From Dendronephthya gigantea (taxonomy: Eukaryota): a stretch of DNA of 64,000 nucleotides. Where the stretch lies: the NCBI RefSeq assembly GCF_004324835.1, contig NW_021163190.1:191242-255241 (forward strand), read 5' to 3'. Positions 4,441 to 53,800 of this stretch are shown piece by piece (positions within the stretch are counted from its first letter, which is position 1; the number at the start of each line of letters is the position of its first letter). The position numbers were made by a program, and so were the translations under genes. The notes beneath the pieces were generated by a model. That model was not told the DNA's origin. It saw only the letters and a list, made by a program, of their open reading frames with translations, and ran no database searches.

Positions 4441-4916
4441 AGCCCGCCGCACAAGAGAGCTATCAGCTGAACTAACGACCTCGCGAGGCATTTAACTCAG
4501 CCTGAAAACTATCCGCACACGATAGAAACTTGCCTCTCGAGGCGAATTCCTCACGAGAAACTATCCGCACACGAGAGTAACTTGCTGAGCTAACAGCCTC
4601 GGGAGGTCTTTACCTCAGCTACCAGCTCTAGTGTGAGGCGCGCTTAACTGAGAAAATAAACAAAATTATTATCGTAATACTCACGATACCTTTTTAGCAT
4701 TACCCGACCCATCACACGTGTAAATTTTATATCCATTCCAAGTCATATTAAGACGGGTTTTTACAATCAACTTTCATGTCTAAGATGAATTTCCCGTGCC
4801 TAATATGAATCTGGTTGTTAATGTGAGAGAGATGATACCTTCGGCTTCTCCGCTTCCTTGAATATACAATCCATTGTTATATGGTTTGTTGTTGTTTGAA
4901 TAAGAACGTATTTTTC

Positions 4917-5346
4917 GTCAAATCTTCGCAGCAAATGGTGTCATGACAGAGCTCTCTGGTTTGCAAATTATGTCGACACCATTGTGTGTACGAGAACCTC
5001 TGTATAATGATAAATTCACGTTAATTTAATTGTTTTGTAAGATTATAAGAATATTATCGATTCGCTGTGTTGTTACAAGGTTACATCTGGTCTTACCTTG
5101 GTGTTCCGAAATCACCACAACCCTGACTGTCACATTCACGGATTGAATTTCTACCATTTGAGCTGCAAAGCTGACCAAGTTTAAAACATTCAACCGCATT
5201 ATCTAGAAAAATAAATACAGAAAAACACGATGAAGAATAACAAAGTGATACTTGAGAATTCTATGAACAAAGATATATATCACAATATGTATTCCAGTAC
5301 CTGCAAAGACTAGGAATATAACAACGATCTTAACAACTCCAAACAT
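4917..5346 (-). CDS. Candidate 3-exon gene for a ~78-aa signal-peptide, cysteine-containing peptide (exons 5346-5301, 5202-5097, 4998-4917), divergent from the downstream Kelch gene
   Basis: Minus-strand ATG at 5346. Exon 1 MFGVVKIVVIFLVFAG, donor CAG|gtactg. Acceptor tttttctag| then DNAVECFKLGQLCSSNGRNSIRECDSQGCGDFGTP, donor AAG|gtaaga. Acceptor ttatacag| then RGSRTHNGVDIICKPESSVMTPFAAKI*. Splice sites conserved in copies at 16932-17360 and 21850-22278; other copies truncated or frameshifted. The protein is an inferred conceptual splice. Confidence 0.4.
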
Positions 5347-5637
5347 CTTTGATCTGCTAAAATTTAATCTTCTAGCTTGAAATAGCTTTTCATCGATATA
5401 ATGACCGCACTTATACAGGATGTTTAAAAAAACACAACACTTAATATTTATGAATATTTTGATACGCTATACGATCTTTTGTGATCAAAACGAAAGTGAA
5501 TTTCATAAACACTTTGAAAATGCGTTTTTTTTATTCACCACAGCTGTAGATCAATCCACAAAATATCCTGAACCATTTGTGTGTTGATGAAAACTCATTT
5601 AGATTGGAATATTATTGCACCGCGAAAATATTCAACT

Positions 5638-6605
5638 TGACTTAGACAGAGTAAAATACTAAAGTAGGTCACATCTGGGTGCATTGCAAGCTAATGGGTT
5701 AACAAGAGACACTGACAAATAGTTTTGTTAACTCGTTAACTGACAGTATTCTTCCACTGATGAGTAAAATCATCTGACATTAGACAGAGTAAAATACTAA
5801 AGTAGGTCACATCTGGGTGCATTGCAAGCTAATGGGTTAACAAGAGACACTGACAGATAGTTTTGTTAACTTATTAACTGACAGTACTCTTCCACTGATG
5901 AGTAAAATCATCTGACATTAGACAGAGTAAAATACTAAAGTCGGTCACATCTGGGTGCATTGCAAGCTAATGGGTTAACAAGAGACACTGACAGATAGTT
6001 TTGTTAACTTATTAACTGACAGTATTCTTCCACTGATGAGTAAAATCATCTGACATTAGACAGAGTAAAATACTAAAGTAGGTCACATCTGGGTGAATTG
6101 CAAGCTAATGGGTTAACAAGAGACACTGACAGATAGTTTTGTTAACTTATTAACTGACAGAACTCTTCCACTGATGAGTAAAATCATCTGACATTAGACA
6201 TAGTAAAATTAAGTAGGTCACATCTGGGTGCATTGCAAGCTAATGGGTTAACAAGAGACACTGACAGATAGTTTTGTTAACTTGTTAACTGACAGTACTT
6301 TTCCACTGGTGAGTAAAATCGTCTGACATTAGACAGAGTAAAATACTAAAGTAGGTCACATCTGGGTGCATTGCAAGCTAATGGGTTAACAAGAGACACT
6401 AACAGATAGTTTTGTTAACTTATTAACTGACAGTACTCTTCCACTGATGAGTAAAATCATGTGACATTAGACAGAGTAAAATACTAAAGTAGGTCACATC
6501 TGGGTGCATTGCAAGCTAATGGGTTAACAAGAGACATTGACAGATAGTTTTGTTAACTTATTAACTGACAGTACTCTTCCACTGATGAGTAAAATCATCT
6601 GACAC
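5638..6605. repeat. 138-bp satellite, ~7 tandem units, in the divergent promoter region upstream of the gene at 6996
   Basis: Period measured: GACATTAGACAG recurs at 5776, 5914, 6052. Unit: gacattagacagagtaaaatactaaagtaggtcacatctgggtgcattgcaagctaatgggttaacaagagacactgacagatagttttgttaacttattaactgacagtactcttccactgatgagtaaaatcatct. Confidence 0.9.
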
Positions 6606-6829
6606 GATTAGGAAAAATCAAGGTTCATAATGCTGGATCATGCAGTTTGACCCAATCACTTTGCATACATAGCTCAGTGCGTTATACTCCAGTCCCAGTT
6701 CTCTCTCTCAGCTCGCGATATTTATTAATTTATTTGTGGAAACACCGGAGCAAATTCCAAGAATTCCTGACAGCAAATGATGCATTTTATGCTCACGCTT
6801 TATTAGGAAGAAATATTTGTCTTCATAAA

Positions 6830-6995
6830 CCGATCATTTTGGAGAAGATTTCGATAAAATACAAACACAGACTTCACCAAGAACGAACACTGTATCTATA
6901 TTCAGTCTATACAGCGAGGTTTTTACTACAGAGCGACAAACAACACAGAACTTGCTTTTTTTATTTATTATTACGACACAAGAACGACGTGAAAT
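6830..6995 (+). promoter_or_regulatory. Conserved proximal promoter / 5'UTR block present upstream of every Kelch gene copy
   Basis: Near-identical ~170 bp ending ..ttattacgacacaagaacgacgtgaaatATG at 13050-13210, 17500-17664, 22420-22584, 28350-28519, 32680-32841, 40080-40245 and 50400-50570. Contains the TATA-like string tctatattcagtctatacag. Confidence 0.55.
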
Positions 6996-8618
6996 ATGGC
7001 TTCATATATACAAGGCTACGATAAAGAAAGGTTTGTCGACAAAATCAATCAAAATTTTCATTGCCAGATTTGCTTCAACGTCTTGAAAGAGCCGGTTATG
7101 TGTTCGAGAAACCAGCATTCTTTTTGCCGTTGTTGTATTACGAAACATCTGGAAAATTCTCAAACATGTCCAACGTGTGCTGATGAACTGACCGTAGAGA
7201 CTTTGATCGAACCACCGCGAATGGTTAAAGATTTTTTGAAAGAATCAAAAATTCGTTGCGTTTACATCGACAGAGGTTGTCAAGAAGTTGTAGAATTACA
7301 GCATCTTGACCGCCATGAAGATACATGTGGATATACACCAGCCGTTTGTACAAACCAAGGCTGTGGTTTAATTGTCAACAAGCGTGATCTTATTCACCAT
7401 GAAAGTGAAGTCTGTGAATTCCGAAAGTTGAAGTGTCACTCGTGCGGAGAAATAACGAAAACTTTGGCAGATATGGAGGAAAGAATGGCGAATATCGAGA
7501 AAAATAATGTAACAATTGAAACTAAAATAACAAATTTAGAGAAAAATATGGCGAGAAATACAACAGTCGCAGTCGCAGATTTAAAAGCAGATATGGAAGG
7601 AAAACACGAAGCGGTTAACAACGAAGTCAAAGGATTGAAAACAGCTTTGGTCAGAGCTTTTGATGAAATTAAGGACGTTCTTATCACGATGGAGGGCAAG
7701 ATAGAAGAAAACACAAGAAAAGTAAGAAATAGACCAAGTGGTGATAAGGAAAATATTATTGTTGCTGGAGGTTTTTTGACTAATTCTGTAGAGATGTTTA
7801 ACTGGCGTCAAAGAACATGGTCGCCATTACAATCAATGCCAAAGGATCGTTGGGGAGCGACTTCATTTATTTATAACAATCATATGACTATAGCTGGGGG
7901 TAGCTGTGCTGGGTCTGACATTGTTGATGACATGATTAGAATGAATATTGACCCAAACCCTGATCTCTCAACACAGTGGAGTGACTGTCCCGTTGAACTA
8001 CCTGATAAGTTGCAAAACCACAGCAGTGTGCTGTATAATGATCAGTTGATAGTCTCTGGAGGTGATTGCAAAAATGGTACATCTGACTTGATCGGATCAG
8101 CCCAGCTTGTTCCTCCCTATACTGTGAAGACCTTATCAAGAATGCCAGAACCAAGACAAGGTCACAGCATGGAAATATTTGATGATAATTTGGTGATAGT
8201 TGGTGGATTTTCAAATCGCCAATACAATGACATCCTCAGCAGTGGCATGCTGTACGGTATAAAGAAGAATGATCTGAAACAGTTATCACCACTGCCGTAT
8301 GAAGTGTGTGGTATGGCAACTGTGAGATGGGGAGACAACATTGTTGTTATTGGTGGCACTGATAATCATGGCAAGACATTAGATACAGTTATCATTTACA
8401 ATGTCAAGACAGGACAAAGTCACATGCTGCCATCAATGAGATGTAAGAGGAGGGGATGTACTGCAGTTGTTATTGAAAACAACATTGTAGTCCTGGGAGG
8501 GTGTGGTGAGGAAGGAGAGCTGAACTCAGTTGAAGGTTTCAACTTTGAAAGGTATTCTTGGGAAGAACTTCCAGAAATGTCTGAAGCAAGATGCTTGCAC
8601 AGTGCTGTTGTTGTGTGA
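6996..8618 (+). CDS. RING (C3HC4) - TRAF-type zinc finger - coiled coil - 6-blade Kelch propeller protein, 540 aa, intronless
   Basis: ORF track. RING: CQICFNVLKEPVMCSRNQHSFCRCCITKHLENSQTCPTC. zf-TRAF-like Cys/His spacing: CVYIDRGCQEVVELQHLDRHEDTCGYTPAVCTNQGCGLIVNKRDLIHHESEVCEFRKLKCHSCGE. Six GG-doublet blades: IIVAGG, MTIAGG, LIVSGG, LVIVGG, IVVIGG, IVVLGG. TGA stop followed by AATAAA-like signals. Confidence 0.85.
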   Translation: MASYIQGYDKERFVDKINQNFHCQICFNVLKEPVMCSRNQHSFCRCCITKHLENSQTCPTCADELTVETLIEPPRMVKDFLKESKIRCVYIDRGCQEVVELQHLDRHEDTCGYTPAVCTNQGCGLIVNKRDLIHHESEVCEFRKLKCHSCGEITKTLADMEERMANIEKNNVTIETKITNLEKNMARNTTVAVADLKADMEGKHEAVNNEVKGLKTALVRAFDEIKDVLITMEGKIEENTRKVRNRPSGDKENIIVAGGFLTNSVEMFNWRQRTWSPLQSMPKDRWGATSFIYNNHMTIAGGSCAGSDIVDDMIRMNIDPNPDLSTQWSDCPVELPDKLQNHSSVLYNDQLIVSGGDCKNGTSDLIGSAQLVPPYTVKTLSRMPEPRQGHSMEIFDDNLVIVGGFSNRQYNDILSSGMLYGIKKNDLKQLSPLPYEVCGMATVRWGDNIVVIGGTDNHGKTLDTVIIYNVKTGQSHMLPSMRCKRRGCTAVVIENNIVVLGGCGEEGELNSVEGFNFERYSWEELPEMSEARCLHSAVVV

Positions 8619-8885: not shown

Positions 8886-11627
8886 TTCTGCTCCTCCCAC
8901 CAACTTAGGTTTTTCAACCCCCCCCCCCACCTGTTTTTTACCCCCCCCTACCTAGGTTTTTCACCCCCCTTTCCATCTAGGCTTTTCACACTCACACACA
9001 CCCTCGCACCTACTTTTTTTAGCCATAACCCCAACCCTCCCCACCTAGGTTCTTCTGCCCTGGTCCCCTAGACCAAGAATCCTAACTGAGCCTCTGCCTG
9101 AAGAAATAGCTCAGTTACCTATTTTAAATATCAGCCTGTCTGTAAATGATGTCTGTGTCTGTCAGACTGCCACAGACAGTCATATTTTAAAATTTAACAA
9201 TTAACAAGATTTGGAGAGACAGTTTTACTCTTTACTAAAACAGAACCCAGAAAATTCTTGTTTCAAGTTTGCTCACAGATTGTTTTGTAATTTGACGTTT
9301 TCCATCGCGTCCTTGAAGGCTTTTAGTACAAGATTTACATTATCTTTTGTACTGTTCAACCCCATCAGAGACCAACACGCCATGTCTGAAAAATTTCATG
9401 ACAAAAAGTAAGGTTTTTCAAAGGGGAAAAAATTTACGATCATGAAGCGAATATCTGCGAATATGGAGAAGAAAATTGTGAATATGGGTACCTTTCCAGC
9501 AGATCTTCCAAGACCGCCTAAAATATCCATTTTAGATCTGAAAAAGAAATTGATTATTCAATTTTAACACTCTCTCTCTTTACTGGACCTCCATGAATCA
9601 CCCCCCTGCAATGCTAAAAAATGCAACTGTTACCAGGGGGGGATTTTCCCAAGATTCATCACTCAGTACGTAAGTCGGTAAGTACGTAAGTAGTATTACT
9701 GAGCAGGTACAGTAAATGGAAAATACAATGCTTTTGCAATATACAATGATATTTTTGTTGAAATAAAACCATATACGGTAGAAATAACTACAAAACCCTG
9801 CTCCAATTTACCAATGCAACAACTATTATTACAAATAGTGTTTTGGGTTTACGATTAAACCATTCTTATAAAGTTGTAAATGAAAATGTTGTGTTATTCC
9901 TGAGTAAGGAATTTCCTGCGATTTTCTCAACACTGAACCTTCATCAGCGAACCCTGAAGACTTCAAAAGGGTGAAATAAAATATTTGCACTAAAACCTAT
10001 CAAAAATGAATGAAGTGAATTACTCTAGTGCAATACACGGGTCTACGCGGTTGTTCTCAAGTCATGCAACGATGAACCTTCCATATTTCATTTTAAAATT
10101 TATGGCTTTATTGTTGAAGAAAATGAAAGCGAAAAAGAGAAATTGTTTACAAGTAAAATAGTCAGATTGTCTTTTAAATTGTTGTGGAAAACTCATTTTG
10201 TTTCGAGAAATGCATTATAGTTTCAAATTTAGTTTAGCCGAATTCATATTAGAGGCGGGAAACTCGTCTTACAAGGTCAAGGAAAACAGAAAACTTGTCT
10301 TACAGGGGAAACTCCTCTTGGAAACTCATCTTAGACGGGAAACTCGTGTGATGTGAATCAGGCCACAGACGGGTTTCTCGTCAGAATTTTCCCGCCTAAC
10401 TTTCCTGTCTAAAGAAACGGTTAATTTGAACGGGAATCCCTTCTGGACGAGAAACTCGTCTTAAATTCGCATTTAGACGGATAAATCAGACGAGTTTCTG
10501 AAATATCAACACGGTCAAGGACGGAACAAGGGTAAAGCCCGCCGCACAAGAGAGCTATCAGCTGAACTAACGACCTCGCGAGGCAGTTAACTCAGCCTGA
10601 AAACTATCCGCACACGATAGAAACTTGCCTCTCGAGGCGAATTCCTCACGAAAAACTATCCGCACACGAGAGTAACTTGCTGAGCTAACAGCCTCGCGAG
10701 GTCTTTACCTCAGCTACCAGCTCTCGTGTGAGGCGCACTTAACTGAGAAAATTAAACAAAATTATTATCGTAATAATCACGATACCCTTTTTAGCATTAC
10801 CCGACCCATCACACGTGTAAATTTTATATCCACTCCAAGTCATATTAAGACGGGTTTTTACAATCAACTTTCCTGTCTAAGATGAATTTCCCGTGCCTAA
10901 TATGAATTTGGTTATTAATGTGACAGAGATGATACCTTCGGCTTCTCCGCTTCCTTGAATATACAATCCATTGTTATATGGTTTGTTGTTGTTTGAATAA
11001 GAACGTAATTTTCGTCAGATCTTCGCAGCAAATGGTGTCATGACAGAACTCGCTGGTTTGCAAATTATGTCGACATCATTGTGTGTACGAGAGCCTCTGT
11101 ATAATGATAAATTCACGTTAATTTAATTGTTTTGTAAGATTATAAGAATATTATCGATTCGCTGTGTTGTTACAAGGTTACATCTGGTCTTACCTTGGTG
11201 TTGCGAAATCACCACAACCCTGACTGTCACATTCACGGAATAAATTTCTACCATTTGAGCTGCAAAGCTGACCAAGTTTAAAACATTCAACCGCATTATC
11301 TAGAAAAATAAATACAGAAAAATGAGAATAACGAAGTGATACTTGAGAACTCTATGAACAAAGATATATATCACAATATGTATTCCAGTACCTGCAAAGA
11401 CTAGAATTTTTATTATTTCTGGTTTCGAGCATTTGAATCGGTGTTAAAGCATTTAGCTAACACGTGTTTTTTTCCTAAGCCATTGTTTGGATCACTGACA
11501 TGCTTGTACAGGAACATCATGATCTGAGTCAATAATAATGTGGTCACACTCATCGGTCACATGCAGAATGTCTTCATTCACGTGATCAGTTATATTAGTA
11601 ATTTCGTGTGGTATATCGTAAGGAAAG

Positions 11628-13210: not shown

Positions 13211-14815
13211 ATGGCTTCATATATACAAGGCTACGATGAAGAAAGGTTTGTGGACAAAATCAATCAAAATTTTCATTGCCAGATTTGCTTCAACGTCTTG
13301 AAAGAGCCGGTTATGTGTTCGAGAAACCAGCATTCTTTTTGCCGTTGTTGTATTACGACACATCTGGAAAATTCTCAAACATGTCCAACGTGTGCTGATG
13401 AACTGACCGTAGAGACTTTGATTGAACCACCGCGAATGGTTAAAGATTTTTTGAATGAATCAAAAATTCGTTGCATTTACATCGACAGAGGTTGTCAAGA
13501 AGTTGTAGAATTACAGCATCTTGACCGCCATGAAGATACATGTGGATATACACCAGCCGTTTGTACAAACCAAGGCTGTGGTTTAATTGTCAACAAGCGT
13601 GATCTTATTCACCATGAAAGTGAAGTCTGTGAATTCCGAAAGTTGAAGTGTCACTCGTGCAGAGAAATGACGAAAACTTTGCCAGATATAGAGGAAAGAA
13701 TGGCGAAGAATAATGTGACAATTGAAACAAAAATAACAAATTTAGAGAGGAATATGGCAAAAAATACCGCAGATATAAAAGCAGATATGGAAGGAAAACT
13801 CGAAGCGGTTAACAACAAAGTCGATGGATTGAAAACAGCTTTGGTCAGAGCTTTTGATGAAATGAAGGACGTTCTTATCACGATGGAGGGCAAGATAGAA
13901 GAAAACACAAGAAAAGTAAGAAATAGACCAAGTGGTGATAAGGAAAATATAATCGTTGCTGGAGGTTTAGGAATTAACTCTGTAGAGATGTTTAACTGGC
14001 GTCAAAGAACATGGTCGCCATTACAATCAATGCCAGAGGATCGTTATGGAGCGACTTCATTTATTTATAACAATCATATGACTATAGCTGGGGGTTGCTG
14101 TGGTGTTTGGTTTGTCATTGTTGATGATATGATTAGAATGAATATTGACCCAAACCCTGATCTCTCAACACACTGGAGTAACTGTCCTGTTAAACTACCT
14201 GATAAGTTGAAAAACCACAGCAGTGTGCTGTATAATGATCAGTTGATAGTCTCTGGAGGTGATAATGGAAATGTTTCATCAGACTTGATCAAATCAGTCC
14301 AGCTTGTTCCTCCCTATACTGTGAAGACCTTATCAAGAATGCCAGAACCAAGACAATGTCACAGCATGGAAATATTTGATGATAATTTGTTGATAGTTGG
14401 TGGAAGTACAACTGGCCATCACAAAGACAATCTCAGCAGTGTCGTACTGTACAATATAAAGAAGAATGAGCTGAAACAGTTGTCACCACTGCCGTATGAA
14501 GTGAATGATATGGCGACTGTGAGATGGGGAGACAACATTGTTGTTATTGGTGGCGAAGACAAACAAAGTTATAAATTAGATACAGTTATCATTTACAATG
14601 TCAAGACAGAACAAAGTCACATGTTGCCATCAATGAGATGTAAGAGGTGGGGAAGTACTGGAGTTATTATTGAAAACAACATTGTAGTCCTGGGAGGGAG
14701 GGGTGAGGACGAATACCTGAAGTCAGTTGAAGGTTTCAACTTTGAAAGGTATTCTTGGGAAGAACTTCCAGAAATGTCTGAAGCAAGATACTTGCACACT
14801 GCTGTTGTTGTGTGA
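13211..14815 (+). CDS. RING-zfTRAF-CC-Kelch paralog, 534 aa
   Basis: ORF track; same architecture. Shorter coiled-coil module and variant GG-loops (IAGGCCGVWFVIVDD). Confidence 0.85.
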   Translation: MASYIQGYDEERFVDKINQNFHCQICFNVLKEPVMCSRNQHSFCRCCITTHLENSQTCPTCADELTVETLIEPPRMVKDFLNESKIRCIYIDRGCQEVVELQHLDRHEDTCGYTPAVCTNQGCGLIVNKRDLIHHESEVCEFRKLKCHSCREMTKTLPDIEERMAKNNVTIETKITNLERNMAKNTADIKADMEGKLEAVNNKVDGLKTALVRAFDEMKDVLITMEGKIEENTRKVRNRPSGDKENIIVAGGLGINSVEMFNWRQRTWSPLQSMPEDRYGATSFIYNNHMTIAGGCCGVWFVIVDDMIRMNIDPNPDLSTHWSNCPVKLPDKLKNHSSVLYNDQLIVSGGDNGNVSSDLIKSVQLVPPYTVKTLSRMPEPRQCHSMEIFDDNLLIVGGSTTGHHKDNLSSVVLYNIKKNELKQLSPLPYEVNDMATVRWGDNIVVIGGEDKQSYKLDTVIIYNVKTEQSHMLPSMRCKRWGSTGVIIENNIVVLGGRGEDEYLKSVEGFNFERYSWEELPEMSEARYLHTAVVV

Positions 14816-15950: not shown

Positions 15951-16931
15951 AAAAAACAATGGAGTTGTTCTTCTGATAGGTATTCTGTGCCTACACTTTC
16001 TTTTTTTTTTATTTTTATTGTATTTTTATCTTTACTTGAAAGCACGACATGAAATTACCATTTAGACCTAACCCGGGGGGGTGACGGGAGTCAATGGCTA
16101 ATTTCATTACTCATTCTGCTTGGAGAAATGCATTATAGTTTAAAATTTAGTTTAGCGGAATTCATATTAGAGGCGGGAAACTCGTCTTACAAGGTCAAGG
16201 AAAACAGGAAACTCGTCTTACAGGGGAAACTCCTCTTGGAAACTCATCTTAGACGGGAAACTCGTCTGATGTGAATCAGGCCACAGACGGGTTTCTCGTC
16301 AGAAGTTTCCCGCCTAACTTTCCCGTCTAAACAAACGGTTAAATTGAACGGCAATCCCTTCTGGACGAGAAACTCGTCTTAAATTCGCATTTAGACGGAT
16401 AAATCAGACGAGTTTCTGAAATATCAACACGGTCAAGGACGGAACAAGGGTAAAGCCCGCCGCACAAGAGAGCTATCAGCTGAGCTAACAACCTCGCGAG
16501 GCAGTTAACTCAGCCTGAAAACTATCCGCACACGATAGAAACCTGCCTCTCGAGGCGAATTCTTCACGAAAAACTATCAGCACACGAGAGTAACTTGCTG
16601 AGCTAACAGCCTCGCGAGGTCTTTACCTCAGCTACCAGCTCTCGTGTGAGGCGCGCTTAACTGAGAAAATAAACAAAATTATTATCGTAATAATCACGAT
16701 ACCCTTTTTAGCATTACCCGACCCATTACACGTGTAAATTTTATATCCATTCCAAGTCATATTAAGACGGGTTTTTACAATCAACTTTCCTGTCTAAGAT
16801 GAATTTCCCGTGCCTAATATGAATTTGGTTCTTCATGTGAGAGAGATGATACCTTCGGCTTCTCCGCTTCCTTGAATATACAATCCATTGTTATATGGTT
16901 TGTTGTTGTTTGAATAAGAACGTGATTTTCG

Positions 16932-17360
16932 TCAGATCTTCGCAGCAAATGGTGTCATGACAGATCTCCCTGGTTAGCAAATTATGTCGACACCATTGTG
17001 TGTACGAGAGCCTCTGTATAATGATAAATTCACGTTAATTTAATTGTTTTGTAAGATTATAAGAATATTGTCGATTCGCTGTGTTGTTACAAGGTTACAT
17101 CTGGTCTTACCTTGGTGTTCCGAAATCACCACAACCCTGACTGTCACATTCGCGGATTGAATTTCTACCATTTGAGCTGCAAAGCTGACCAAGTTTAAAA
17201 CATTCAACCGCATTATCTAGAAAAATAAATGCAGAAAAATGCGATGAAGAATAACGAAGTGATACTTGAGAATTCTATGAACAAAGATATATATCACAAT
17301 ATGTATTCCAGTACCTGCAAAGACTAGGAATATAACAACGATCTTAACAACTCCAAACAT
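16932..17360 (-). CDS. Second copy of the candidate small secreted Cys-peptide gene (premature stop after ..VDIIC)
   Basis: Same exon/intron layout as 4917-5346; the C-terminal exon carries TAA where copy 1 has AAA. Confidence 0.35.
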
Positions 17361-17664
17361 CTTTGATCTGCTAAAATTTAATCTTCTAGCTTGAAATGGC
17401 TTTTCATCGATATAATGACCGCACTTATACAGGATGTTTAAAAAACGCAACACTTAATATTCATGAATATTTTGATACGCTATACGATCTTTTGTGATCA
17501 AAACGAAAGTGAATTTTCGAGAGGGTTTCGAGAAAATAAAAACACAGACATCTTCAAGAACGAACACTGTATCTATATTCAGTCTATACAGCGAGGTTTA
17601 TACTACAGAGCGACAAACAACACAGAACTTGCTTTATTATTACGACACAAGAACGACGTGAAAT

Positions 17665-19308
17665 ATGGCTTCATATATACAAGGCTACGATGAAGAAAGG
17701 TTTGTGAACCAAATCGATCGAAATTTTCATTGTCAGATTTGCTTCAACGTCTTGAAAGAGCCGGTTATGTGTTCGAGAAACCAGCATTCTTTTTGCCTTT
17801 GCTGTATTACGAAACATCTGGAAAAATCTCAAACTTGTCCAACGTGTGCCGATGAACTGACCGTAGAGACTTTGGCCGAACCAAATAGAATGGTAAAAGA
17901 TTTTTTGAATGAATCAAAAATTCGTTGCGTTTACATGGACAGAGGTTGTCAAGAAGTTGTAGAATTACAGCATCTTGACCGCCATGAAGATACATGTGGA
18001 TATACACCAGCCGTTTGTACAAACCAAGGCTGTGGTTTAATTGTCAACAAGCGTGATCTTATTCACCATGAAAGTGAAGTCTGTGAATTCCGAAAGTTGA
18101 AGTGTCACTCGTGCGGAGAAATGACGAAAACTTTGGCAGATATGGAGGAAAGAATGGCGAATATCGAGAAGAATATGGTAACAAATAACATTGAAACTAA
18201 AATAACAAATTTAGAGAAAAATGTTGCCACTGTTGCGAATAATATGGAGAAAAACACGGCAGATTTAAAAGCAAATATAAAAGCAGATATGGAAGGAAAA
18301 CTCGAAGCGGTTAACAACAAAGTCGATGGATTGAAAACAGCTTTGGTCAGAGCTTTTGATGAAATAAAGGACGTTCTTATCACGATGGAGGGCAAGAAAG
18401 AAGAAAACACAAGAAAAGTAAGAAATAGACCAAGTGGTGATAAGGAAAATATAATTGTTGCTGGAGATGTAGTAACTAACTCTGTAGAGATGTTTAACTG
18501 GCGTCAAAGAACATGGTCGCCATTACAATCAATGCCAAAGGATCGTTTTGGAGCGACTTCATTTATTTATAACAATCATATGACTATAGCTGGGGGTTAC
18601 TGTGATGTCATTGTTGATGATATGATTAGAATGAATATTGACCCAAACCCTGATCTCTCAACACACTGGAGTGACTGTCCTGTTAAACTACCTGATAAGT
18701 TGAGATTCCACAGCAGTGTGCTGTATAATGATCAGTTGATGGTCTCTGGAGGTGATATTGAAAATGGTTCATCTGACTTGATCAGATCAGTCCAGCTTGT
18801 TCCTCCCTATACTGTGAAGACCTTATCAAGAATGCCAGAACCAAGACAAGGTCACAGCATGGAAATATTTGATGATAATTTAGTGATAGTTGGTGGAAGT
18901 ACAATTAGCAGTTACAAAGGCAACCTTAGCAGTGTCGTACTGTACGATATAAAGAAGAATGAGCTGAAACAGTTGTCACCACTGCAGTATGAAGTGAGTC
19001 ACATGGCAACTGTGAGATGGGGAGACAACATTGTTGTTATTGGTGGCGATGACAAACATGGCAAGACATTAGATACAGTTATCATTTACAATGTCAAGAC
19101 AGAACAAAGTCACATGTTGCCATCAATGAGATGTAAGAGGTGGGGATGTGCTGCAGTTGTTATTGAAAACAACATTGTAGTCCTGGGAGAGGATGGTGAG
19201 GAAGGAAACCTGAAGTCAGTTGAAGGTTTCAACTTTGAAAAGTATTTTTGGGAAGAACTTCCAGAAATGTCTGAAGCAAGATTGTGGCCCACTGCTGTTG
19301 TTGTGTGA
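17665..19308 (+). CDS. RING-zfTRAF-CC-Kelch paralog, 547 aa
   Basis: ORF track. Longest coiled-coil (extra IEKN/VATVANNMEKN modules). Last blade reads LGEDGEEG, not LGG. Confidence 0.8.
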   Translation: MASYIQGYDEERFVNQIDRNFHCQICFNVLKEPVMCSRNQHSFCLCCITKHLEKSQTCPTCADELTVETLAEPNRMVKDFLNESKIRCVYMDRGCQEVVELQHLDRHEDTCGYTPAVCTNQGCGLIVNKRDLIHHESEVCEFRKLKCHSCGEMTKTLADMEERMANIEKNMVTNNIETKITNLEKNVATVANNMEKNTADLKANIKADMEGKLEAVNNKVDGLKTALVRAFDEIKDVLITMEGKKEENTRKVRNRPSGDKENIIVAGDVVTNSVEMFNWRQRTWSPLQSMPKDRFGATSFIYNNHMTIAGGYCDVIVDDMIRMNIDPNPDLSTHWSDCPVKLPDKLRFHSSVLYNDQLMVSGGDIENGSSDLIRSVQLVPPYTVKTLSRMPEPRQGHSMEIFDDNLVIVGGSTISSYKGNLSSVVLYDIKKNELKQLSPLQYEVSHMATVRWGDNIVVIGGDDKHGKTLDTVIIYNVKTEQSHMLPSMRCKRWGCAAVVIENNIVVLGEDGEEGNLKSVEGFNFEKYFWEELPEMSEARLWPTAVVV

Positions 19309-21849
19309 ACAATATGTAAGGTAATATTAAGTGAAAACTCCTAACATATTATGAACAATTGAAATGAACTATAAGATTTTCACAAAGTTATAGAAATAGT
19401 TTGTAGCATTCTAAGTTGATTGTAAGACATATACTGATTTGTATTTTTGTGATTGAATTTAAATTAAGTCAGTTCTTAGAACAATAATAAATGTTTGAAA
19501 TAGATATTTTCATTCTGGAAGGTCTAAAATGAAACACAAAATAAAAAATTTGAAATAAGCTTTTCTGCACCCACTCCATCTAGCTTTTTTCAGCCCCTCC
19601 CCTCCCACCTAGGTTTTTTAGCCACAACCCCACCCCTCCCCACCTAGGTTCTTCTGCCCTGGTCCCCCAGACCAAAAATCCTAACTGAGCCTCTGCCTCA
19701 AGAAATAGCTCAGTTACCTATTTTAAATATCAGCCTGTCTGTAAATAATGTCTGTGTCTGTCAGACTGCCACAAACCGAGTCATATTTTAAAATTTAACA
19801 ATTAACAAGATTTGGAGAGATAGTTTTACTCTTTATTAAAACAAAACCCTGATTAACTAATATAAATTGGTTTGTCAACTAAAATAAAATTCTTGTTTCA
19901 AGTTTGCTCACAGATTGTTTTGTAATTTCACGTTTTCCATCGCGTCCTTGAAGGCTTTTAGTACAAGATTTACATTATCTTTTGTACTGTTCAACCCCAT
20001 CAGACCAACACGCCATATCTGAAAATTTTCAGGACAAAAAGTATGCTTTTAAGAGGGAAAAAAAAATTTCCGATTATGGAGGGAATAACTGCGAATATGA
20101 AGAAGAAATTGTGAATATGGATACCTTTCCAGCAGATCTTCCAAGACCACCTGAAATATCCATTTTATATCTGAAAAAGAAATTGATTATTCAATTTTAA
20201 CACTCTCCCTCTTTATTGGACCTCTATGGATCACCCCCCTGCAAGTCTTAAAAATGCAGCTGTTAGCAGCGGGGGGACTCTTTCCCAAGATTCATCACTC
20301 AGCAAGTACCGTTAATGGAAGGAACTACCCCCTGACCATATTAAAAATGGAGCACTTGCTGAATGAGGGAATCACTTATGCAAAAAACTATGGAGTTGTT
20401 CTTCTGATAGGTATTCTGTGCCTACACTTTCTTTTATTTTTATTGTATTTTTATCTTTACTTGAGAGAACGACATGAAATTACCATTTAGACCTAACCCG
20501 GGGGGTGAAGGAAGTACAATCATCAAATTCATTACTAATGGTAGTATATATACAATTAAATTGACTTTTGCAAAATACAATGACATTTTCGTGCAAATAA
20601 AACCAAATACGGTAGAAATAACTACAAAACCATGCTCCATTTTACCAATACAACAACTATTATTACAAATAGTCTTTTGGGTTTACGATTAAACCATTCT
20701 TATAAAATTGTAAATGCAAATGCTGTGTTATTCCTGAGTAAGGAATTTCCTACGATTTTCCTAACACTGAACCTTCATCAGCGAAGCCTGAAGACTTCGA
20801 AGGCGTGAAATAAAATATCTTTGCACTAAAACCTATAAAAAATGAATGAAGTTAATTACTCTAGTGCAATACACGGGTCTACGAGGTTGTTCTCAAGTCA
20901 TGCAACGATGAACCTTCCATATTTCATTTTAATATTTATGGCTTTATTGTTGAAGATAATGAAAGCGAAAGAGAGAAATTGTTTACAAGTGAAATAGTCA
21001 GATTGTCTTTTAAATTGCCGTGGAAAACTGATTTTGTTTCGAGAAATACATTATAGTTTAAAATTTACTTTAGCCGAATTCATATTAGAGGCGGGAAACT
21101 CGTCTTACAAGGTCAAGAAAAACAGGAAACTCGTTTCACAGGGGAAACTCCTCTTGGAAACTCATCTCAGACGGGAAACTCGTCTGATGTGAATCAGGCC
21201 ACAGACGGGTTTCTCGTCAGAATTTTCCCGCCTAATTTTCCCGTGTAAACAAACGGTTAATTTGAACGGGAATCCCTTCTGGACGACAAACTCGTCTTAA
21301 ATTCGCATTTAGACGGATAAATCAGACGAGTTTCTGAAATATCAACACGGTCAAGGACGGAACAAGGGTAAAGCCCGCCGCACAAGAGAGCTATCAGCTG
21401 AGCTAACGACCTCGCAACGCAGTTAACTCAGCCTGAAAACTATCCGCACACGATAGAAACTTGCCTCTCGAGGCGAATTCCACACGAAAAACTATCCGCA
21501 CACGAGAGTAACTTGCTGAGCTAACAGCCTAGCGAGGTCTTTACCTCAGCTACCAGTTCTCGTGTGAGGCGCGCTTAACTGAGAAAATAAACAAAATTAT
21601 TATCGTAATAATCACGATACCCTTTTTAGCATTACCCGACCCATCACACGTGTAAATTTTACATCCATTCCAAGTCATATTAAGACGGGTTTTTACAATC
21701 AACTTTCCTTTCTAAGATGAATTTCCCGTGCCTAATATGAATTTGGTTGTTAATGTGAGAGAGATGATACCTTCGGCTTCTCCGCTTCCTTGAATATACA
21801 ATCCATTGTTATATGGTTTGTTGTTGTTTGAATAAGAACGTGATTTTCG

Positions 21850-22278
21850 TCAGATCTTCGCAGCAAATGGTGTCATGACAGAACTCCCTGGTTTGCAAAT
21901 TATGTCGACACCATTGTGTGTACGAGAGCCTCTGTATAATGATAAATTCACGTTAATTTAATTGTTTTGTAAGATTATAAGAATATTATCGATTCGCTGT
22001 GTTGCCACAAGCTTACATCTGGTCTTACCTTGGTGTTCCGAAATCACCACAACCCTGACTGTCACATTCACGGATTGAATTTCTACCATTTGAGCTGCAA
22101 AGCTGACCAAGTTTAAAACATTCAACCGCATTATCTAGAAAAATAAATCCAGAAAAATACGAGGAAAAATAACGAAGTGATACTTGAGAATTCTATGAAC
22201 AAAGATATATATCACAATATGTATTCCAGTACCTGCAAAGACTAGGAATATAACAACGATCTTAACAACTCCAAACAT
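21850..22278 (-). CDS. Third copy of the candidate small secreted Cys-peptide gene
   Basis: Same layout; exon 3 reads ..GVDIICKPGSSVMTPFAAKI*. Further 5'-truncated copies at ~11040-11400 and ~48490-48830. Confidence 0.35.
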
Positions 22279-22584
22279 CTTTGATCTGCTAAAATTTAAT
22301 CTTCTAGCTTGAAATGGCTTTTCATCGATATATTGACCGCACTTATACAGGATGTTTCAAAAAACACAACACTTAATATTCATGAATATTTTGATACGCT
22401 ATACGATCTTTTGTGATCAAAACGACAATATCATTTTCCAGAAGATTGCGAGAAAATACAAACACAGACTTGTCCAAGAACGAACACTGTATCTATATTC
22501 AGTCTATACAGCGAGGTTTAAACTACAGAGCGACAAACAACACAGAGCTTGCTTTATTATTACCACACAAGAACGACGTGAAAT

Positions 22585-24207
22585 ATGGCTTCATATATAC
22601 AAGGCTACGATGAAGAAAGGTTTGTGGACAAAATCAATCAAAATTTTCATTGTCAGATTTGCTTCAACGTCTTGAAAGAGCCGGTTATGTGTTCGAGAAA
22701 CCAGCATTCTTTTTGCCGTTGTTGTATTACGAAACATCTGGAAAATTCTCAAACATGCCCAACGTGTGCTGATGAACTGACCGTAGAGACTTTGGCCGAA
22801 GCACCGCGAATGGTTAAAGATTTCTTGAATGAATCGAAAATTCGTTGCGTTTACATCGACAGAGGTTGTCAAGAAGTTGTAGAATTACAGCATCTTGACC
22901 GCCATGAAAATACATGTGGATATACACCAGCCGTGTGTACAAACCAAGGCTGTGGTTTAATTGTCAACAAGCGTGATCTTATTCACCATGAAAGTGAAGT
23001 CTGTGAATTTCGAAAGTTGAAGTGTCACTCGTGCGGAGAAATAACCAAAACTTTGGCAGATATGGAGGAAAGAATGGCGAATATCGAGAATAATATCGAG
23101 AAGAATAATACAACAGTTGAAATTAAAATAACAAATTTAGACAGAAAAATAGACAAAAACACGGCAGATATAAAAGCGGATATGGAAGGAAAACACGAAG
23201 CGGTTAACAACAAAGTCGATGGATTGAAAACAGCTTTGGTCAAAGCTTTTAATGAAATAAAGGACGTTCTTATCACGATGGAGGGCAAGATAGAAGAAAA
23301 CACAAGAAAAGTAACAAATAGACCAAGTGGTGATAAGGAAAATATAATTGTTGCTGGAAGTTATGGAACTAACTCTGTAGAGATGTTTAACTGGCGTCAA
23401 AGAACATGGTCGCCATTACAATCAATGCCAGAGAATCGTTGTGGAGCGACTTCATTTATTTATAACAATCATATGACTATAGCTGGGGGTTGGTGTGGTG
23501 GGTCTGGCATTGTTGATGATATGATTAGAATGAATATTGACCCAAACCCTGATCTCTCAACAGACTGGAGTGACTGTCCTGTTAAACTACCTGATAAATT
23601 AATATTCCACAGCAGTGTGGTGTATAATGATGAGTTGATAGTCTCTGGAGGTGATAATGGAAATGGTTCATCTGACTTGATCAGAGCAGTCCAGCTTGTT
23701 CCTCCCTATACTGTGAAGACCTTATCAAGAATGCCAGAACCAAGACAATGTCACAGCATGGAAATATTTGATGATAATTTGTTGATAGTTGGTGGAAGTA
23801 CAATTAGCAGTTACAAAGGCAACCTTACCAGTGTCGTACTGTACGATATAAAGAAGAATGAGCTGAAACAGTTGTCACCACTACCGTATGAAGTGAGTCA
23901 CATGGCAACTGTGAGATGGGGAGACAACATTGTTGTTATTGGTGGTATTGACAAACATGGCAAGTTATTAGATAAAGTTATCATTTACAATGTGAAGACA
24001 GAACAAAGTCACATGCTGCCATCAATGAGATGTAAGAGGTGGGGATGTACTGCAGTTGTTATTGAAAACAACATTGTAGTCCTGGGAGGGGAGAGTGAGC
24101 AAGCAATGCAAACGTCAGTTGAAGGTTTCAACTTTGAAAGGTATTCTTGGGAAGAACTTCCAGAATTGTCTGAAGCAAAATGGATACACACTGCTGTTGT
24201 TGTGTGA
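22585..24207 (+). CDS. RING-zfTRAF-CC-Kelch paralog, 540 aa
   Basis: ORF track; same architecture; loop variants IAGGWCGGSGIVDD and LGGESEQAMQTSVEG. Confidence 0.85.
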   Translation: MASYIQGYDEERFVDKINQNFHCQICFNVLKEPVMCSRNQHSFCRCCITKHLENSQTCPTCADELTVETLAEAPRMVKDFLNESKIRCVYIDRGCQEVVELQHLDRHENTCGYTPAVCTNQGCGLIVNKRDLIHHESEVCEFRKLKCHSCGEITKTLADMEERMANIENNIEKNNTTVEIKITNLDRKIDKNTADIKADMEGKHEAVNNKVDGLKTALVKAFNEIKDVLITMEGKIEENTRKVTNRPSGDKENIIVAGSYGTNSVEMFNWRQRTWSPLQSMPENRCGATSFIYNNHMTIAGGWCGGSGIVDDMIRMNIDPNPDLSTDWSDCPVKLPDKLIFHSSVVYNDELIVSGGDNGNGSSDLIRAVQLVPPYTVKTLSRMPEPRQCHSMEIFDDNLLIVGGSTISSYKGNLTSVVLYDIKKNELKQLSPLPYEVSHMATVRWGDNIVVIGGIDKHGKLLDKVIIYNVKTEQSHMLPSMRCKRWGCTAVVIENNIVVLGGESEQAMQTSVEGFNFERYSWEELPELSEAKWIHTAVVV

Positions 24208-24769
24208 ACAATATGTAAGGTATTAAGTGAAAACTCCTAACATATTATGAACAATTGAAATGAACTATAAGATTTTCACAAAGTTATAGAAATAGATTGT
24301 AGGATTCTAAGTTGATTGTCAGACATATACTGATTTGTATTTTTGTAACTGAATTTAAATTGAGTCAGTTCTTGGAGTTATATATTAAAGAACAATGACA
24401 AATGTATGAAATAGATATTTCCATTCAGGAAGGTTTAAAATGAAACATCAAATAAAAGAATTCAAACAATAGGTAGGTGCATGAGTAAAAAAAATTTGAT
24501 TAAATATTGACCATGTTGGATCAGAGTTATTAGTTTCTATTAACTGCGGTTTGGATTTAAAAAATTCAACTTTCCTAGAAGCATAAATATTTCTGGGAGG
24601 AGACATAAAATGAAAGGGTAAACTTACGATGTTTCAGAGCATGTGATGCAGGGAATATTTCTGATGTTAGATTTCAACATTGATAATGGCGTTTGTTCAT
24701 CTCTACCATGATGTTCTCCACATTTGAAATAAAATTCCTTTGAAAGAACAAAAAGTTTGTGATCGACCT

Positions 24770-25190
24770 ACTTTAGTATTTTAATCTGTCTAATGTCAGA
24801 TGATTTTACTCATCAGTGGAAGAGTACTGTCAGTTAATAAGTTAACAAAACATTCTGTCAGTGTCTCTTGTTAACCCATTAGCTTGCAATGCACCCAGAT
24901 GTGACCTACTTTAGTATTTTACTCTGCCTAATGCCAGATGATTTTACTCATCAGTGGAAGAGTACTGTCAGTTAATAAGTTAACAAAACTATCTGTCAGT
25001 GTCTCTTGTTAACCCATTAGCTTGCAATGCACCCAGATGTGACCTACTTTAGTATTTTACTCTGTCTAATGTCAGATGATTTTACTCATCAGTGGAAGAG
25101 TACTGTCAGTTAATAAGTTAGCAAAACTATCTGTCAGTGTCTCTTGTTAACCCATTAGATTGCAATGCCCCCAGATGTGGCCCACTATTG
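24770..25190. repeat. Same 138-bp satellite, ~3 units, inverted orientation
   Basis: Reverse-complement monomers (tactttagtattttactctgtctaatgtcagatgattttactcatcagtggaagag...). Confidence 0.85.
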
Positions 25191-25619
25191 TATTTTAGGT
25201 CTGATAGGTCTTACAGCTGTTTTTCCATGACAGTTTGTATTGGATTCACATTGTCCCTGCAAGCGGCCTTTGATCAATACATCATCCCAACCATTTGGAC
25301 CCTTGCAAGAAACCATAAATATTGTGTAAACAAGATATTTGTTGACATTCAAAAGCTTTCACAGCAAGCTTGTAAACAAGTTGAAACAATGTCAACATTT
25401 AATTTACAAAGTTGTACATAAATCTGCTGTGGTTTTTTACAAGTTGTTTATAAGCAAAGAGTAAATACCTGTGATAGAACAAAGCTTCCTTCCTTGCAAT
25501 TTGAACATCGACATCGCAATTTTCCTCGTGTTAGTTTCTTGCAAGTTTTACAATAAACAAAGAAGAAACTTTGCTTGCCTGAGATGAGAGAGGATGAAAA
25601 GTTTGGATTATTAAAGAAG

Positions 25620-26652: not shown

Positions 26653-26800
26653 CTGATTGTTGAGATTCACCATCTTCATCTTTGTCATCCTGTGTCAGTT
26701 TCACTTTCGTCAAACCATCATTCGCATTGTAAGTTGCATCAACTGAGATCTGACCAGATTTCTGAACAGCATGAATGACGCTGTGGTTCATCTCTGCATT
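26653..26800 (-). CDS. Exon 2 of the UBL-domain gene (NAEMNHSVIHAVQKSGQISVDATYNANDGLTKVKLTQDDKDEDGESQQS..)
   Basis: Acceptor ttttatag|AATGCAGAG, phase 0. Completes the UBL fold (..SVIHAVQK). Candidate donor CAG|gtggtg at 26652. The paralogous copy diverges exactly after that site, as expected for an intron. Confidence 0.55.
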
Positions 26801-53520: not shown

Positions 53521-53535
53521 GTTTAGTAAACATAC

Positions 53536-53794: not shown

Positions 53795-53800
53795 CTAAAT

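Follow-up and report, generated by a model that had tools for sequence, protein, structure and literature searches.

LECT2-like gene copies with a shared premature stop codon beside RING-TRAF-Kelch genes of Dendronephthya gigantea

Background

LECT2 (chondromodulin II; PDB 5B0H; Pfam PF01551, Peptidase_M23) binds zinc through H35, D39 and H120 and contains three disulfides (PMC8039541), and the human gene is composed of four exons (PMC9258709). We found nothing relevant in the literature on the function of LECT2 in cnidarians or corals, and Kelch, TRAF and LECT2 all go unmentioned in the paper on the D. gigantea genome. RNA-seq data from planulae and polyps of this species exist (PMC6447388). 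Here, we analysed a stretch of 64,000 nucleotides of the D. gigantea assembly (contig NW_021163190.1), called the window below, in which small minus-strand ORFs lie upstream of genes for RING-TRAF-Kelch proteins. These ORFs had been taken for genes of a small secreted Cys-containing peptide, possibly paired with the Kelch genes in a functional cassette.

Gene model and homology of the minus-strand ORF

The three-exon ORF of the first unit, called copy A, was confirmed on the minus strand, with GT/AG borders at all junctions. Its exons are as follows.

5301 to 5346, minus strand: exon 1 of LECT2-like copy A, with the ATG at 5346-5344 and the signal-peptide-like MFGVVKIVVIFLVFA, ending in a split codon (phase 1)
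5097 to 5202, minus strand: exon 2 of copy A, DNAVECFKLGQLCSSNGRNSIRECDSQGCGDFGTPR, aligned to residues 5-33 of human LECT2
4839 to 4999, minus strand: ancestral exon 3 of copy A, with the HxxxD zinc-ligand motif THNGVD, an in-frame TGA at 4920-4918 and a GT donor at 4838-4837

The product is a 77-residue peptide with five Cys residues and a strongly hydrophobic N-terminus. The preliminary description was right about the ORF, its start, three exons, splice sites and Cys content, and about one residue too long in its length of ~78, the final G of 'MFGVVKIVVIFLVFAG' opening an Asp codon that is split between exons. In the putative signal peptide that it reported, residues 1-13 have a mean Kyte-Doolittle hydropathy of 2.4-3.2; they align with the signal region of the homologues and are modelled by AlphaFold2 as a low-confidence helix. 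Exon 1 encodes the same residues as the N-terminus of the RefSeq protein XP_028415283.1, and after splicing, copies A and D give complete products that match XP_028415283.1 and XP_028417478.1, respectively, in every letter. Chance can thus be ruled out as the source of the exon model. RefSeq names these identical D. gigantea proteins 'leukocyte cell-derived chemotaxin-2-like', so the LECT2-like identity is already known. An example of a tryptic peptide expected from the truncated product is THNGVDIICKPGSSVMTPFAAK.

The earlier reading overlooked the continuation of exon 3 past the TGA and a fourth exon, present at 20832-20663 and 9996-9829. Beyond the TGA, exon 3 runs on for 27 further in-frame codons homologous to LECT2, up to the conserved GT donor at 4838. 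When exons 1 to 3 were read through the stop and compared with the human LECT2 chains of the PDB (5b0h, 9non), phmmer returned an E value of 9e-15. With exon 4 added, the E value was 8e-23 over residues 26-146, with H35, D39 and H120 aligned. The window copies are 71-74% identical to P0001, an intact LECT2-like protein of D. gigantea (160 residues, annotated as leukocyte cell-derived chemotaxin-2-like). Across the entire read-through reconstruction the identity is 74% and the exon boundaries match; P0001 has a Leu at the position of the TGA and an uninterrupted last exon. P0001 also exceeds the Pfam Peptidase_M23 cut-off. The read-through reconstruction scored 26.4 bits, below the cut-off of 28.7, and neither the product of exons 1 to 3 nor the 77-residue ORF gave a meaningful Pfam match; the family assignment therefore rests on the phmmer searches of the PDB and on database homologues, not on Pfam. 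The AlphaFold2 model of the read-through reconstruction (pLDDT 86.5) has as its best PDB match 5b0h_A (TM score 0.86, rmsd 2.0 Å), followed by bacterial M23 enzymes.

Four of the five Cys residues of the 77-residue product are conserved LECT2 cysteines, C28, C39, C44 and C63 corresponding to human C7, C18, C23 and C42. The His and Asp zinc ligands are also present, in the THNGVD motif of exon 3. The third ligand is missing, the equivalent of His120 being the second His of an HLH motif in exon 4, 3' of the stop. According to the AlphaFold2 read-through model, seven of the nine β-strands (E84-86 to E152-154) come after the TGA at codon 78, in the post-stop tail of exon 3 and exon 4 together, and the encoded product does not contain the complete M23 β-sheet. 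Without the third ligand and these seven strands, the 62 residues that follow the putative signal peptide should be unable to form a LECT2 domain.

Homology and predicted fold identify the minus-strand gene as a LECT2 paralogue specific to its lineage, LECT2 being secreted, zinc-binding and of the M23 metallopeptidase fold. The 77-residue product corresponds to the N-terminal half of a protein of the LECT2 type, cut off at codon 78. It does not represent a novel family of small Cys-containing peptides; the homology to human LECT2 and to P0001 runs through the TGA to the donor at 4838.

LECT2-like copies and their lesions

Homologous units were found at several other places in the window. The shared stop codon and the other copies are listed below.

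4918 to 4920, minus strand: shared nonsense TGA in copy A, corresponding to Leu78 of P0001; also at 11015-11017, 16932-16934, 21850-21852 and 48503-48505
10936 to 11404, minus strand: copy B, with exon 1 lacking the ATG and its first 33 nt; exons 2 and 3 present, the shared TGA included, with four amino-acid changes private to this copy
9829 to 9996, minus strand: exon 4 of copy B, 168 nt as against 170 nt in copy D
16853 to 17360, minus strand: exons 1-3 of copy C, with an additional TAA at 16976-16974 (Lys64>stop); exon 4 deleted
21771 to 22278, minus strand: exons 1-3 of copy D, with the shared TGA and the intact 77-residue ORF (XP_028417478.1)
20663 to 20832, minus strand: exon 4 of copy D, which corresponds to the C-terminal third of LECT2 and includes the HLH motif with its zinc ligand as well as the natural TAA, but has an inactivating CAG>TAG change at 20752-20750
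31315 to 31728, minus strand: fragment E, only the 3' flank of a LECT2-like unit, exons absent
48425 to 48834, minus strand: copy F, without exon 1, with +4-nt and -1-nt indels in exon 3; exon 4 deleted

The TGA is common to all five copies that have exon 3 and must therefore have arisen before the segment was duplicated. At this column, the homologues have Leu or Val (PFAAKILRKS in P0023). Copy D has a four-exon, three-intron structure with GT/AG borders and matching phases, as does copy B apart from its 5' truncation. The frame of exon 4 is shifted in copy B by a 2-nt deletion near its 5' end, and a segment of ~487 bp containing this exon is deleted in copies A, C and F. The 77-residue ORF is intact in two of the five copies (A and D), and the polyA signals are retained.

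Most of what had been noted about these copies agrees with our analyses. The splice sites are canonical (GT donor, AG acceptor) at every junction in each copy possessing them, and the copies at 16932-17360 and 21850-22278 agree with copy A in start codon, exon layout and splice sites. The early stop reported for the former corresponds to an AAA>TAA change at codon 64, and the copies described as 5'-truncated or frameshifted are B and F, both lacking their 5' part, F with indels in addition.

Kelch neighbours and spacer

The main features on the Kelch side of the units are listed below.

6996 to 8618, plus strand: single-exon ORF of 540 residues, with a RING domain (C3HC4), a TRAF/Sina zinc finger, a coiled coil and a Kelch propeller
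13211-14815, 17665-19308, 22585-24207, 32842-34467 and 50571-52211: other intact RING-TRAF-Kelch copies
3-1025, 28520-30154, 40246-40398 and 43944-45419: damaged or partial Kelch copies
5504 to 6835: segment of 1.33 kb specific to copy A, absent from C and D, with seven 138-bp satellite units (5638-6604)
22279 to 22584: head-to-head spacer of D, 306 bp from the ATG of LECT2-like D to that of Kelch D, corresponding to 17361-17664 in copy C

The genetic environments do not bear out a pairing in each array unit. LECT2-like exons precede five of the ~10 Kelch copies or fragments of the window; three of these five have kept the ATG and two the intact ORF, and several Kelch copies lack a LECT2 partner or are accompanied by a parkin-like gene instead. 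The shared intergenic region of ~1.6 kb proved to be particular to copy A, where the start codons are 1649 bp apart (~1.65 kb) because of the satellite-bearing segment at 5504-6835; the spacing is 304 bp in C and 306 bp in D. Thus, the head-to-head distance is not below 1 kb in every unit, given the value in A and the lack of the first exon in B and F. The 138-bp satellite occurs at five further places in the window. No terminal inverted repeats of at least 9 nt were found in the A-specific segment, and its edges show short direct repeats only (TTCATAAAC and AAA[A/C]CGA). The junctions of C and D differ slightly, a weak hint that each may have arisen by its own deletion from a longer ancestral spacer.

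The Kelch-proximal ~170 bp of the spacer (from about 22430) are conserved 5' of Kelch homologues in other assemblies. The Kelch genes of five such loci (L001-L005) share only these ~170 bp upstream of the Kelch ATG, and no LECT2-like or parkin-like sequence was found within 10 kb of the ~10 Kelch homologues that they contain. With a long spacer confined to copy A, most LECT2-like copies disabled and Kelch genes without LECT2 elsewhere, the sensor-plus-ligand cassette under a bidirectional promoter that the preliminary description envisaged lacks support. In octocoral-type assemblies, relatives of the Kelch family number well over a thousand, and the Kelch propellers show dN/dS values above 1.

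Origin and fate of the LECT2-like copies

We consider with a probability of roughly 0.7 that the minus-strand genes are truncated, decaying LECT2 copies, i.e. transcribed non-processed pseudogenes that were co-duplicated as passengers with the RING-TRAF-Kelch genes. An ancestral four-exon LECT2-like gene acquired a TGA at codon 78, where its relatives have Leu. The segment with the LECT2-like and Kelch genes head to head would then have been amplified, the LECT2-like part presumably as a passenger. The copies have since gathered independent lesions, such as loss of the ATG, stops, indels and deletion of exon 4. The ORF that survives in A and D would code for a signal peptide followed by the 62-residue fragment, in which two presumed disulfides and all but one of the three zinc ligands remain. 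Its head-to-head order with Kelch would reflect the ancestral gene order rather than a sensor-ligand module. Because of the shared stop and the further decay, the LECT2-like ORF looks like a passenger and not like a new ligand.

The relic copies are probably transcribed. That RefSeq treats the LECT2-like genes as protein-coding, with isoforms, points to a degree of transcript support. One of these isoforms, P0003, has an alternative first exon (MENTESSVWNLDSGAVK) that is absent from the window, as searched in six frames as a whole and as 8-mers with mismatches. Like this protein-coding status, other observations go against the pseudogene reading: the ORF is open in two of the five window copies and has at least six distinct RefSeq variants of 77-79 residues, and the ~305 bp between the ATGs of C and D fit the geometry of a bidirectional promoter.

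These observations could also be accommodated if the short LECT2 had been neo-functionalised, so that the 77-residue product would be a genuine secreted peptide co-expressed with the Kelch E3 through a short bidirectional promoter. We regard this as unlikely. It is true that several RefSeq variants from other contigs end in ...AAKI, that the ORF is intact in A and D with every splice dinucleotide conserved and polyA signals kept, and that the LECT2-like genes of C and D lie 304-306 bp from a Kelch gene whose propeller has a dN/dS above 1. Such values are frequent in immune-type receptors. Nevertheless, three of the five copies are disabled 5' of the TGA, and by a rough, uncomputed estimate about half of all 231-nt ORFs evolving neutrally should remain uninterrupted at ~3% divergence. 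The fragment lacks seven of nine strands and the third zinc ligand, the Kelch homologues elsewhere lack a LECT2 partner, and no short LECT2-N family was found outside D. gigantea, with almost all of the 167 representative matches having 140-200 residues.

The pattern of substitutions also argues against that hypothesis, since the exons are conserved no more than the introns and the post-stop segment is at least equally conserved. Among the copies, 10 of 234 sites vary in the pre-stop exons and 81 of 1133 in non-coding sequence (Fisher p=0.11), compared with two of 81 in the untranslated post-stop part. The exon changes are eight non-synonymous (one of them nonsense) and four synonymous, and the dN/dS of ~0.7 is indistinguishable both from 1 and from 0.3 given the few substitutions, which leave the selection tests with low power. 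With Paramuricea as the outgroup, 13 amino-acid changes fall on the window lineage and three on that of the intact paralogue P0001 (p=0.012), whose protein has evolved ~4 times more slowly. Along the window lineage, seven of 62 pre-stop and six of 27 post-stop sites have changed, about half the rate before the stop, a difference that goes against the pseudogene reading but is not significant. Exon conservation no better than that of the introns is consistent with neutrality at the low power of these sequence comparisons. It is unlikely that the truncated N-terminal fragments, each a signal peptide and 62 residues with two disulfides and the HxGxD segment, have become Dendronephthya-specific, multi-copy secreted peptides, divergent from the fast-evolving RING-TRAF-Kelch E3 genes with which they would share a short promoter. 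If they had, the short LECT2 and the Kelch protein would represent a module of innate immunity that originated in a broken gene.

Another gene of the window suggests a different possible use of the same exons.

24627 to 27401, minus strand: truncated parkin-like gene (Ubl and zf-RING_12), upstream of LECT2-like D and on the same strand; second copy at 34793-37669

The LECT2-like exons might mainly serve as 3' exons of the parkin-like gene, in transcripts that cross the opposite-strand Kelch gene and code for Ubl-RING0-LECT2-fragment fusions. The donor of the last parkin-like exon, ATC|GTAAGT (at about 24627), can join in frame an acceptor 8 nt 5' of the LECT2-like ATG (at about 22286 in copy D), and this donor and the acceptor cag|ATCAAAGATG are present around Kelch D in matching order and strand. 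The RefSeq model P0018 (281 residues) contains precisely such an in-frame junction between parkin-like exon 5 and the LECT2-like acceptor (...CITCSETS|SKMFGVVKIVV...), and P0016 has a different, out-of-frame junction, from parkin exon 4 to LECT2 exon 2. However, both models are automated predictions from paralogous loci on other contigs, and the junction of P0016 is out of frame, as splicing noise would give. No plausible fold can be proposed for a cytosolic Ubl-RING0 joined to an internal signal peptide and one half of an M23 domain, and a parkin-like gene lies upstream of only two of the five LECT2-like copies of the window. Fusions as the main role of these exons are therefore improbable. 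The fallback of the preliminary description, untranslated 5' exons of another transcript, fails as worded, although RefSeq models do splice a parkin-like gene into the same exons. Most likely, the exons of the decaying LECT2 copies are sometimes captured by transcripts that read through from the truncated parkin-like gene upstream.

Lastly, recoding of the TGA, by selenocysteine insertion or programmed read-through, to give a full-length LECT2-like protein would be compatible with the 27 open post-TGA codons conserved in A-D and the intact downstream donor, and is effectively refuted: the relatives have Leu or Val at the aligned position, neither Cys nor Sec, neither a SECIS element nor another Rfam family was detected at threshold in the window, and no copy could yield a full-length protein even with read-through, as exon 4 is missing from A, C and F, interrupted by a TAG in D and frameshifted in B.

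Significance and comparison with known systems

The main value of these analyses is a correction, in which a candidate cassette of secreted peptide and E3 sensor becomes a decaying copy of the known LECT2 family. Segmental duplication of an expanding RING-TRAF-Kelch family appears to drag along LECT2-like and parkin-like fragments, generating short ORFs and chimeric gene models. This is useful for the curation of cnidarian gene sets, in which 77-residue 'proteins' of this kind inflate the counts. The more interesting biology lies in the adjacent Kelch propellers, with their dN/dS above 1 and large family.

Of the described systems, LECT2 itself is the closest, with a signal-peptide-like N-terminus, the H-x3-D zinc motif and the H-x-H motif of the last exon in common. 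The third disulfide of vertebrate LECT2 is missing even in the intact cnidarian paralogue, and the window copies differ from LECT2 in that all of them are interrupted by a TGA at codon 78 and carry additional lesions. Gene pairs with bidirectional promoters resemble copies C and D in their divergent orientation and in the 304-306 bp between start codons, in contrast with the 1649 bp of copy A, and the Kelch-proximal ~170 bp also occur elsewhere without a LECT2 partner. Like non-processed duplicated pseudogenes, the window copies have retained their introns, share a founding nonsense mutation followed by independent lesions, and show exon divergence equal to that of the introns; here too there are annotated transcripts, some of them chimeric with a fragment of a neighbouring gene. 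Unlike typical duplicated pseudogenes, some of the copies keep an open frame of 77 residues with a signal-peptide-like start.

LECT2-like identity of the minus-strand gene

The minus-strand gene of the array is almost certainly a member of the LECT2 family and corresponds to the front half of a LECT2 gene. In copy A, one of five copies that carry exons, its organization is as follows:

5346-5344, minus strand: start codon ATG
5346-5301, minus strand: exon 1 (46 nt), donor GT at 5300
5202-5097, minus strand: exon 2 (106 nt), acceptor AG at 5204-5203, donor GT at 5096-5095
from 4999, minus strand: exon 3, acceptor AG at 5001-5000
4920-4918, minus strand: stop codon TGA

The spliced product, MFGVVKIVVIFLVFADNAVECFKLGQLCSSNGRNSIRECDSQGCGDFGTPRGSRTHNGVDIICKPESSVMTPFAAKI, is 77 residues long, with five Cys. 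As the preliminary description had it, copies C (17360-16932) and D (22278-21850) have the same ATG, exon lengths and GT/AG dinucleotides; the terminal ‘G’ that it gave for exon 1 belongs to an Asp codon split by the intron, of which it supplies the first base. Conceptual translations of copies A and D match the D. gigantea RefSeq proteins XP_028415283.1 and XP_028417478.1 at every residue, both being named ‘leukocyte cell-derived chemotaxin-2-like’, and thus the 77-aa ORF is not due to chance. As these RefSeq entries already carry the right family name, the feature is not new in terms of annotation. What is new is the detail, namely the truncation history and putative passenger status of the LECT2-like copies; the biology is ordinary.

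Past the TGA, the frame of copy A continues for 27 further codons (RKIRSYSNNNKPYNNGLYIQGSGEAEG) up to a canonical GT donor (4838-4837). With the stop masked, exons 1-3 match the human LECT2 chains 5b0h and 9non (E=9e-15), and the alignment crosses the stop. Their best database relative, with 71% identity over the whole query, is P0001, an intact, 160-aa LECT2-like protein of D. gigantea that passes the Pfam Peptidase_M23 cut-off and has a Leu at the TGA position. Using P0001 in tblastn searches, we located the missing last exon downstream of copy D (20832-20663), with a second match downstream of copy B (9996-9829). Joining the four exons of copy D, with X at stops, yielded a 160-aa reconstruction that is 74% identical to P0001 and matches human LECT2 with E=8e-23 (residues 26-146). 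The best PDB match of its AlphaFold model (pLDDT 86.5) is 5b0h_A (TM 0.86, rmsd 2.0 Å), with bacterial M23 peptidases ranking next.

State of the LECT2-like copies

In addition to the five copies with exons, the window contains one exon-less 3' fragment (31315-31728). The same TGA is present in all five exon-3 copies (4918, 11015, 16932, 21850 and 48503), and therefore the nonsense mutation is older than the duplications. The secondary lesions are independent:

Copy A: ~487-bp segment with exon 4 missing
Copy B: ATG and 33 nt of exon 1 absent; four private amino-acid changes; exon 4 of 168 nt vs 170 expected, hence a frameshift
Copy C: codon 64 AAA>TAA; exon-4 segment missing
Copy D: CAG>TAG in exon 4
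Copy F: exon 1 absent; exon 3 indels (+4 and -1); exon-4 segment missing

The 77-aa ORF survives in A and D alone. Seven of the nine β-strands in the model of the reconstruction (E84-86 onward) come after codon 78, as does the third zinc ligand; for this reason the 77-aa product cannot form the LECT2 domain.

Exon 3 of copy F (48425-48588, minus strand) has its 4-nt insertion before the shared TGA and its 1-nt deletion after it, and stays open over its full length in another frame, which avoids the TGA. This is probably a coincidence, exons 1 and 4 being absent.

Kelch partner genes

On the plus strand lies the partner, whose ORF occupies one exon and encodes 534-547 aa, with a C3HC4 RING, TRAF/Sina zinc finger, coiled-coil region and Kelch propeller, an architecture for which the label ‘Kelch E3’ is fair. 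Six intact and four damaged or partial Kelch copies are found in the window. Each unit had been proposed to pair such a gene with a peptide gene across a shared region of ~1.6 kb. This spacing is found for copy A (ATG-to-ATG 1649 bp) but not for C and D (304 and 306 bp). The copy A spacer harbours a segment of 1.33 kb (5504-6835) that includes seven satellite units of 138 bp; the junctions in C and D differ slightly from each other, a faint hint of separate deletions of a longer spacer. Nor is pairing general, with several Kelch copies devoid of LECT2 exons upstream. A truncated parkin-like gene lies head-to-head upstream of the copy at 28520, the copy at 32842 has only a LECT2 3' fragment upstream, and no LECT2 exons were found upstream of the copies at 40246 and 43944.

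An orphan stub at 39536-40398, also without LECT2 exons, consists of a copy-A-type spacer with a single satellite unit, then the first 51 Kelch codons only.

The Kelch family comprises 1571 database proteins at E≤1e-10, those from Paramuricea bearing the names NRDP1 or RING finger 151-like. No LECT2-like or parkin-like sequence was found within 10 kb of about ten Kelch homologues at five loci of other assemblies. Only about 170 bp directly upstream of the Kelch ATG (window 22430-22600) are conserved at those loci (79-84%), and the boundary coincides with a jump in divergence among the window copies, from about 3% on the LECT2 side to 5-13% on the Kelch side. From these alignments, the Kelch gene appears to come with a proximal promoter of its own. 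That LECT2 is its neighbour is accidental and local to this array.

Passengers or functional peptides

We favour, with a probability of about 0.72, a scenario in which a Kelch-containing segment was amplified and the LECT2-like copies were carried along with it. They would be non-processed pseudogenes or at best truncated relics, and any 77-aa product would be a secreted fragment unable to form the domain.

The main rival, a neo-functional short peptide co-expressed with Kelch, is unlikely. Among the five copies, 10 of 234 pre-stop exon sites vary vs 81 of 1133 sites in the flanks and introns (Fisher p=0.11); for the stretch of exon 3 beyond the stop, which is not translated, the figure is 2 of 81. 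The pre-stop exons thus show no distinguishable excess of conservation over non-coding DNA, and the untranslatable part is conserved to at least the same degree. Pre-stop changes comprise eight non-synonymous, including one nonsense, and four synonymous ones (dN/dS roughly 0.7, too small a sample to be informative). Taking Paramuricea P0002 as the outgroup, we count 13 amino-acid changes on the window lineage vs 3 in the intact paralogue (p=0.012), split 7 vs 2 before the stop and 6 vs 1 after it; replacements at otherwise conserved positions in the window lineage include IRGCD>IRECD and GYYGA>GDFGT. An exhaustive HMMER search with the 77-aa product collected 167 representative relatives, almost all of 140-200 aa, the sole clearly related short form being the D. 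gigantea protein P0003. Together, the evidence favours relaxed constraint on the short ORF, with which residual function is still compatible.

Somewhat less likely still is a primary role in chimeric parkin-LECT2 products. The proposal that these are exons of another transcript is partly borne out, as the 90% cluster of the 77-aa proteins also contains ‘parkin-like’ RefSeq models from paralogous loci. In P0018 (...CITCSETS/SKMFGVVKIVV...), parkin-like exon 5 is spliced in frame onto an acceptor that precedes the LECT2-like ATG by 8 nt; in P0016, parkin-like exon 4 is joined to LECT2 exon 2 out of frame. The donor ATC/GTAAGT and acceptor cag/ATCAAAGATG for the read-through junction are both in the window, where the parkin-like exons match D. 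gigantea RefSeq models. Any such transcript would have Kelch D, the Kelch gene beside copy D, inside its ‘intron’, and the chimeric models look like noise from transcription running through clustered gene fragments. Lastly, recoding of the TGA is highly improbable, as even read-through would not allow any window copy to yield a full-length protein.

The truncated parkin-like genes code for about 210 aa without RING1-IBR-RING2, and a Kelch gene adjoins each of them in head-to-head or convergent orientation:

27401-24627, minus strand: copy 1, Ubl and zf-RING_12
37669-34793, minus strand: copy 2, Ubl and zf-RING_12; in-frame stop in exon 3 (SF*FVYC, 35487-35401)

Kelch ORF divergence and repeats

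Six RING-TRAF-Kelch ORFs are intact:

6996-8618, plus strand
13211-14815, plus strand
17665-19308, plus strand
22585-24207, plus strand
32842-34467, plus strand
50571-52211, plus strand

Mean dN/dS among them is 1.18 in the propeller half, with all 15 pairs above 1, and 0.45 in the RING-TRAF-coiled-coil half, and divergence along the ORFs is patchy. The pattern is suggestive of diversifying selection, mosaic gene conversion or both, in the manner of immune-receptor-like expansions. The repeat unit (16012-19308, aligned with units A and D) has a sharp internal discontinuity: copies differ by about 3% in the LECT2-like half, introns included, and by about 8-11% at Kelch synonymous sites, with the switch about 150-170 bp upstream of the Kelch ATG. 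Both homogenisation of one half and exchange of Kelch ORFs with distant paralogues are possible causes. The exact products of 6996-8615, 17665-19305 and 22585-24204 are absent from a 15-billion-protein collection (best match only 76% identity) that does hold LECT2-like and parkin-like products of the same contig; the RefSeq annotation of D. gigantea may thus lack these Kelch genes or model them differently.

The 138-bp minisatellite (units 93-98% identical) occurs in both orientations at six dispersed sites, two of which fall within the final intron of the parkin-like genes. It probably belongs to a repetitive or mobile element; a search around the copy A instance revealed no terminal inverted repeats. 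Tandem arrays occupy the wider regions 53152-55931 and 25662-26347.

5638-6604, 24765-25197, 34932-35225, 39722-39863, 56185-56537, 56917-57574: 138-bp minisatellite
53152-53527: 114 bp x3.3
53801-54592: 77 bp x10.3, 98% identity
55373-55931: 80 bp x7
25662-25951: AG-rich 19/36-bp repeat inside a parkin-like intron

Comparison with human LECT2

Human LECT2 has three disulfides and binds zinc through H35, D39 and H120 (PMC8039541). H35 and D39 align with THNGVD of window exon 3, and H120 with the latter His of the exon 4 HLH. All but one of the five Cys residues of the 77-aa product align with human C7, C18, C23 and C42, so the pattern on which a small secreted Cys-peptide had been proposed is that of LECT2.
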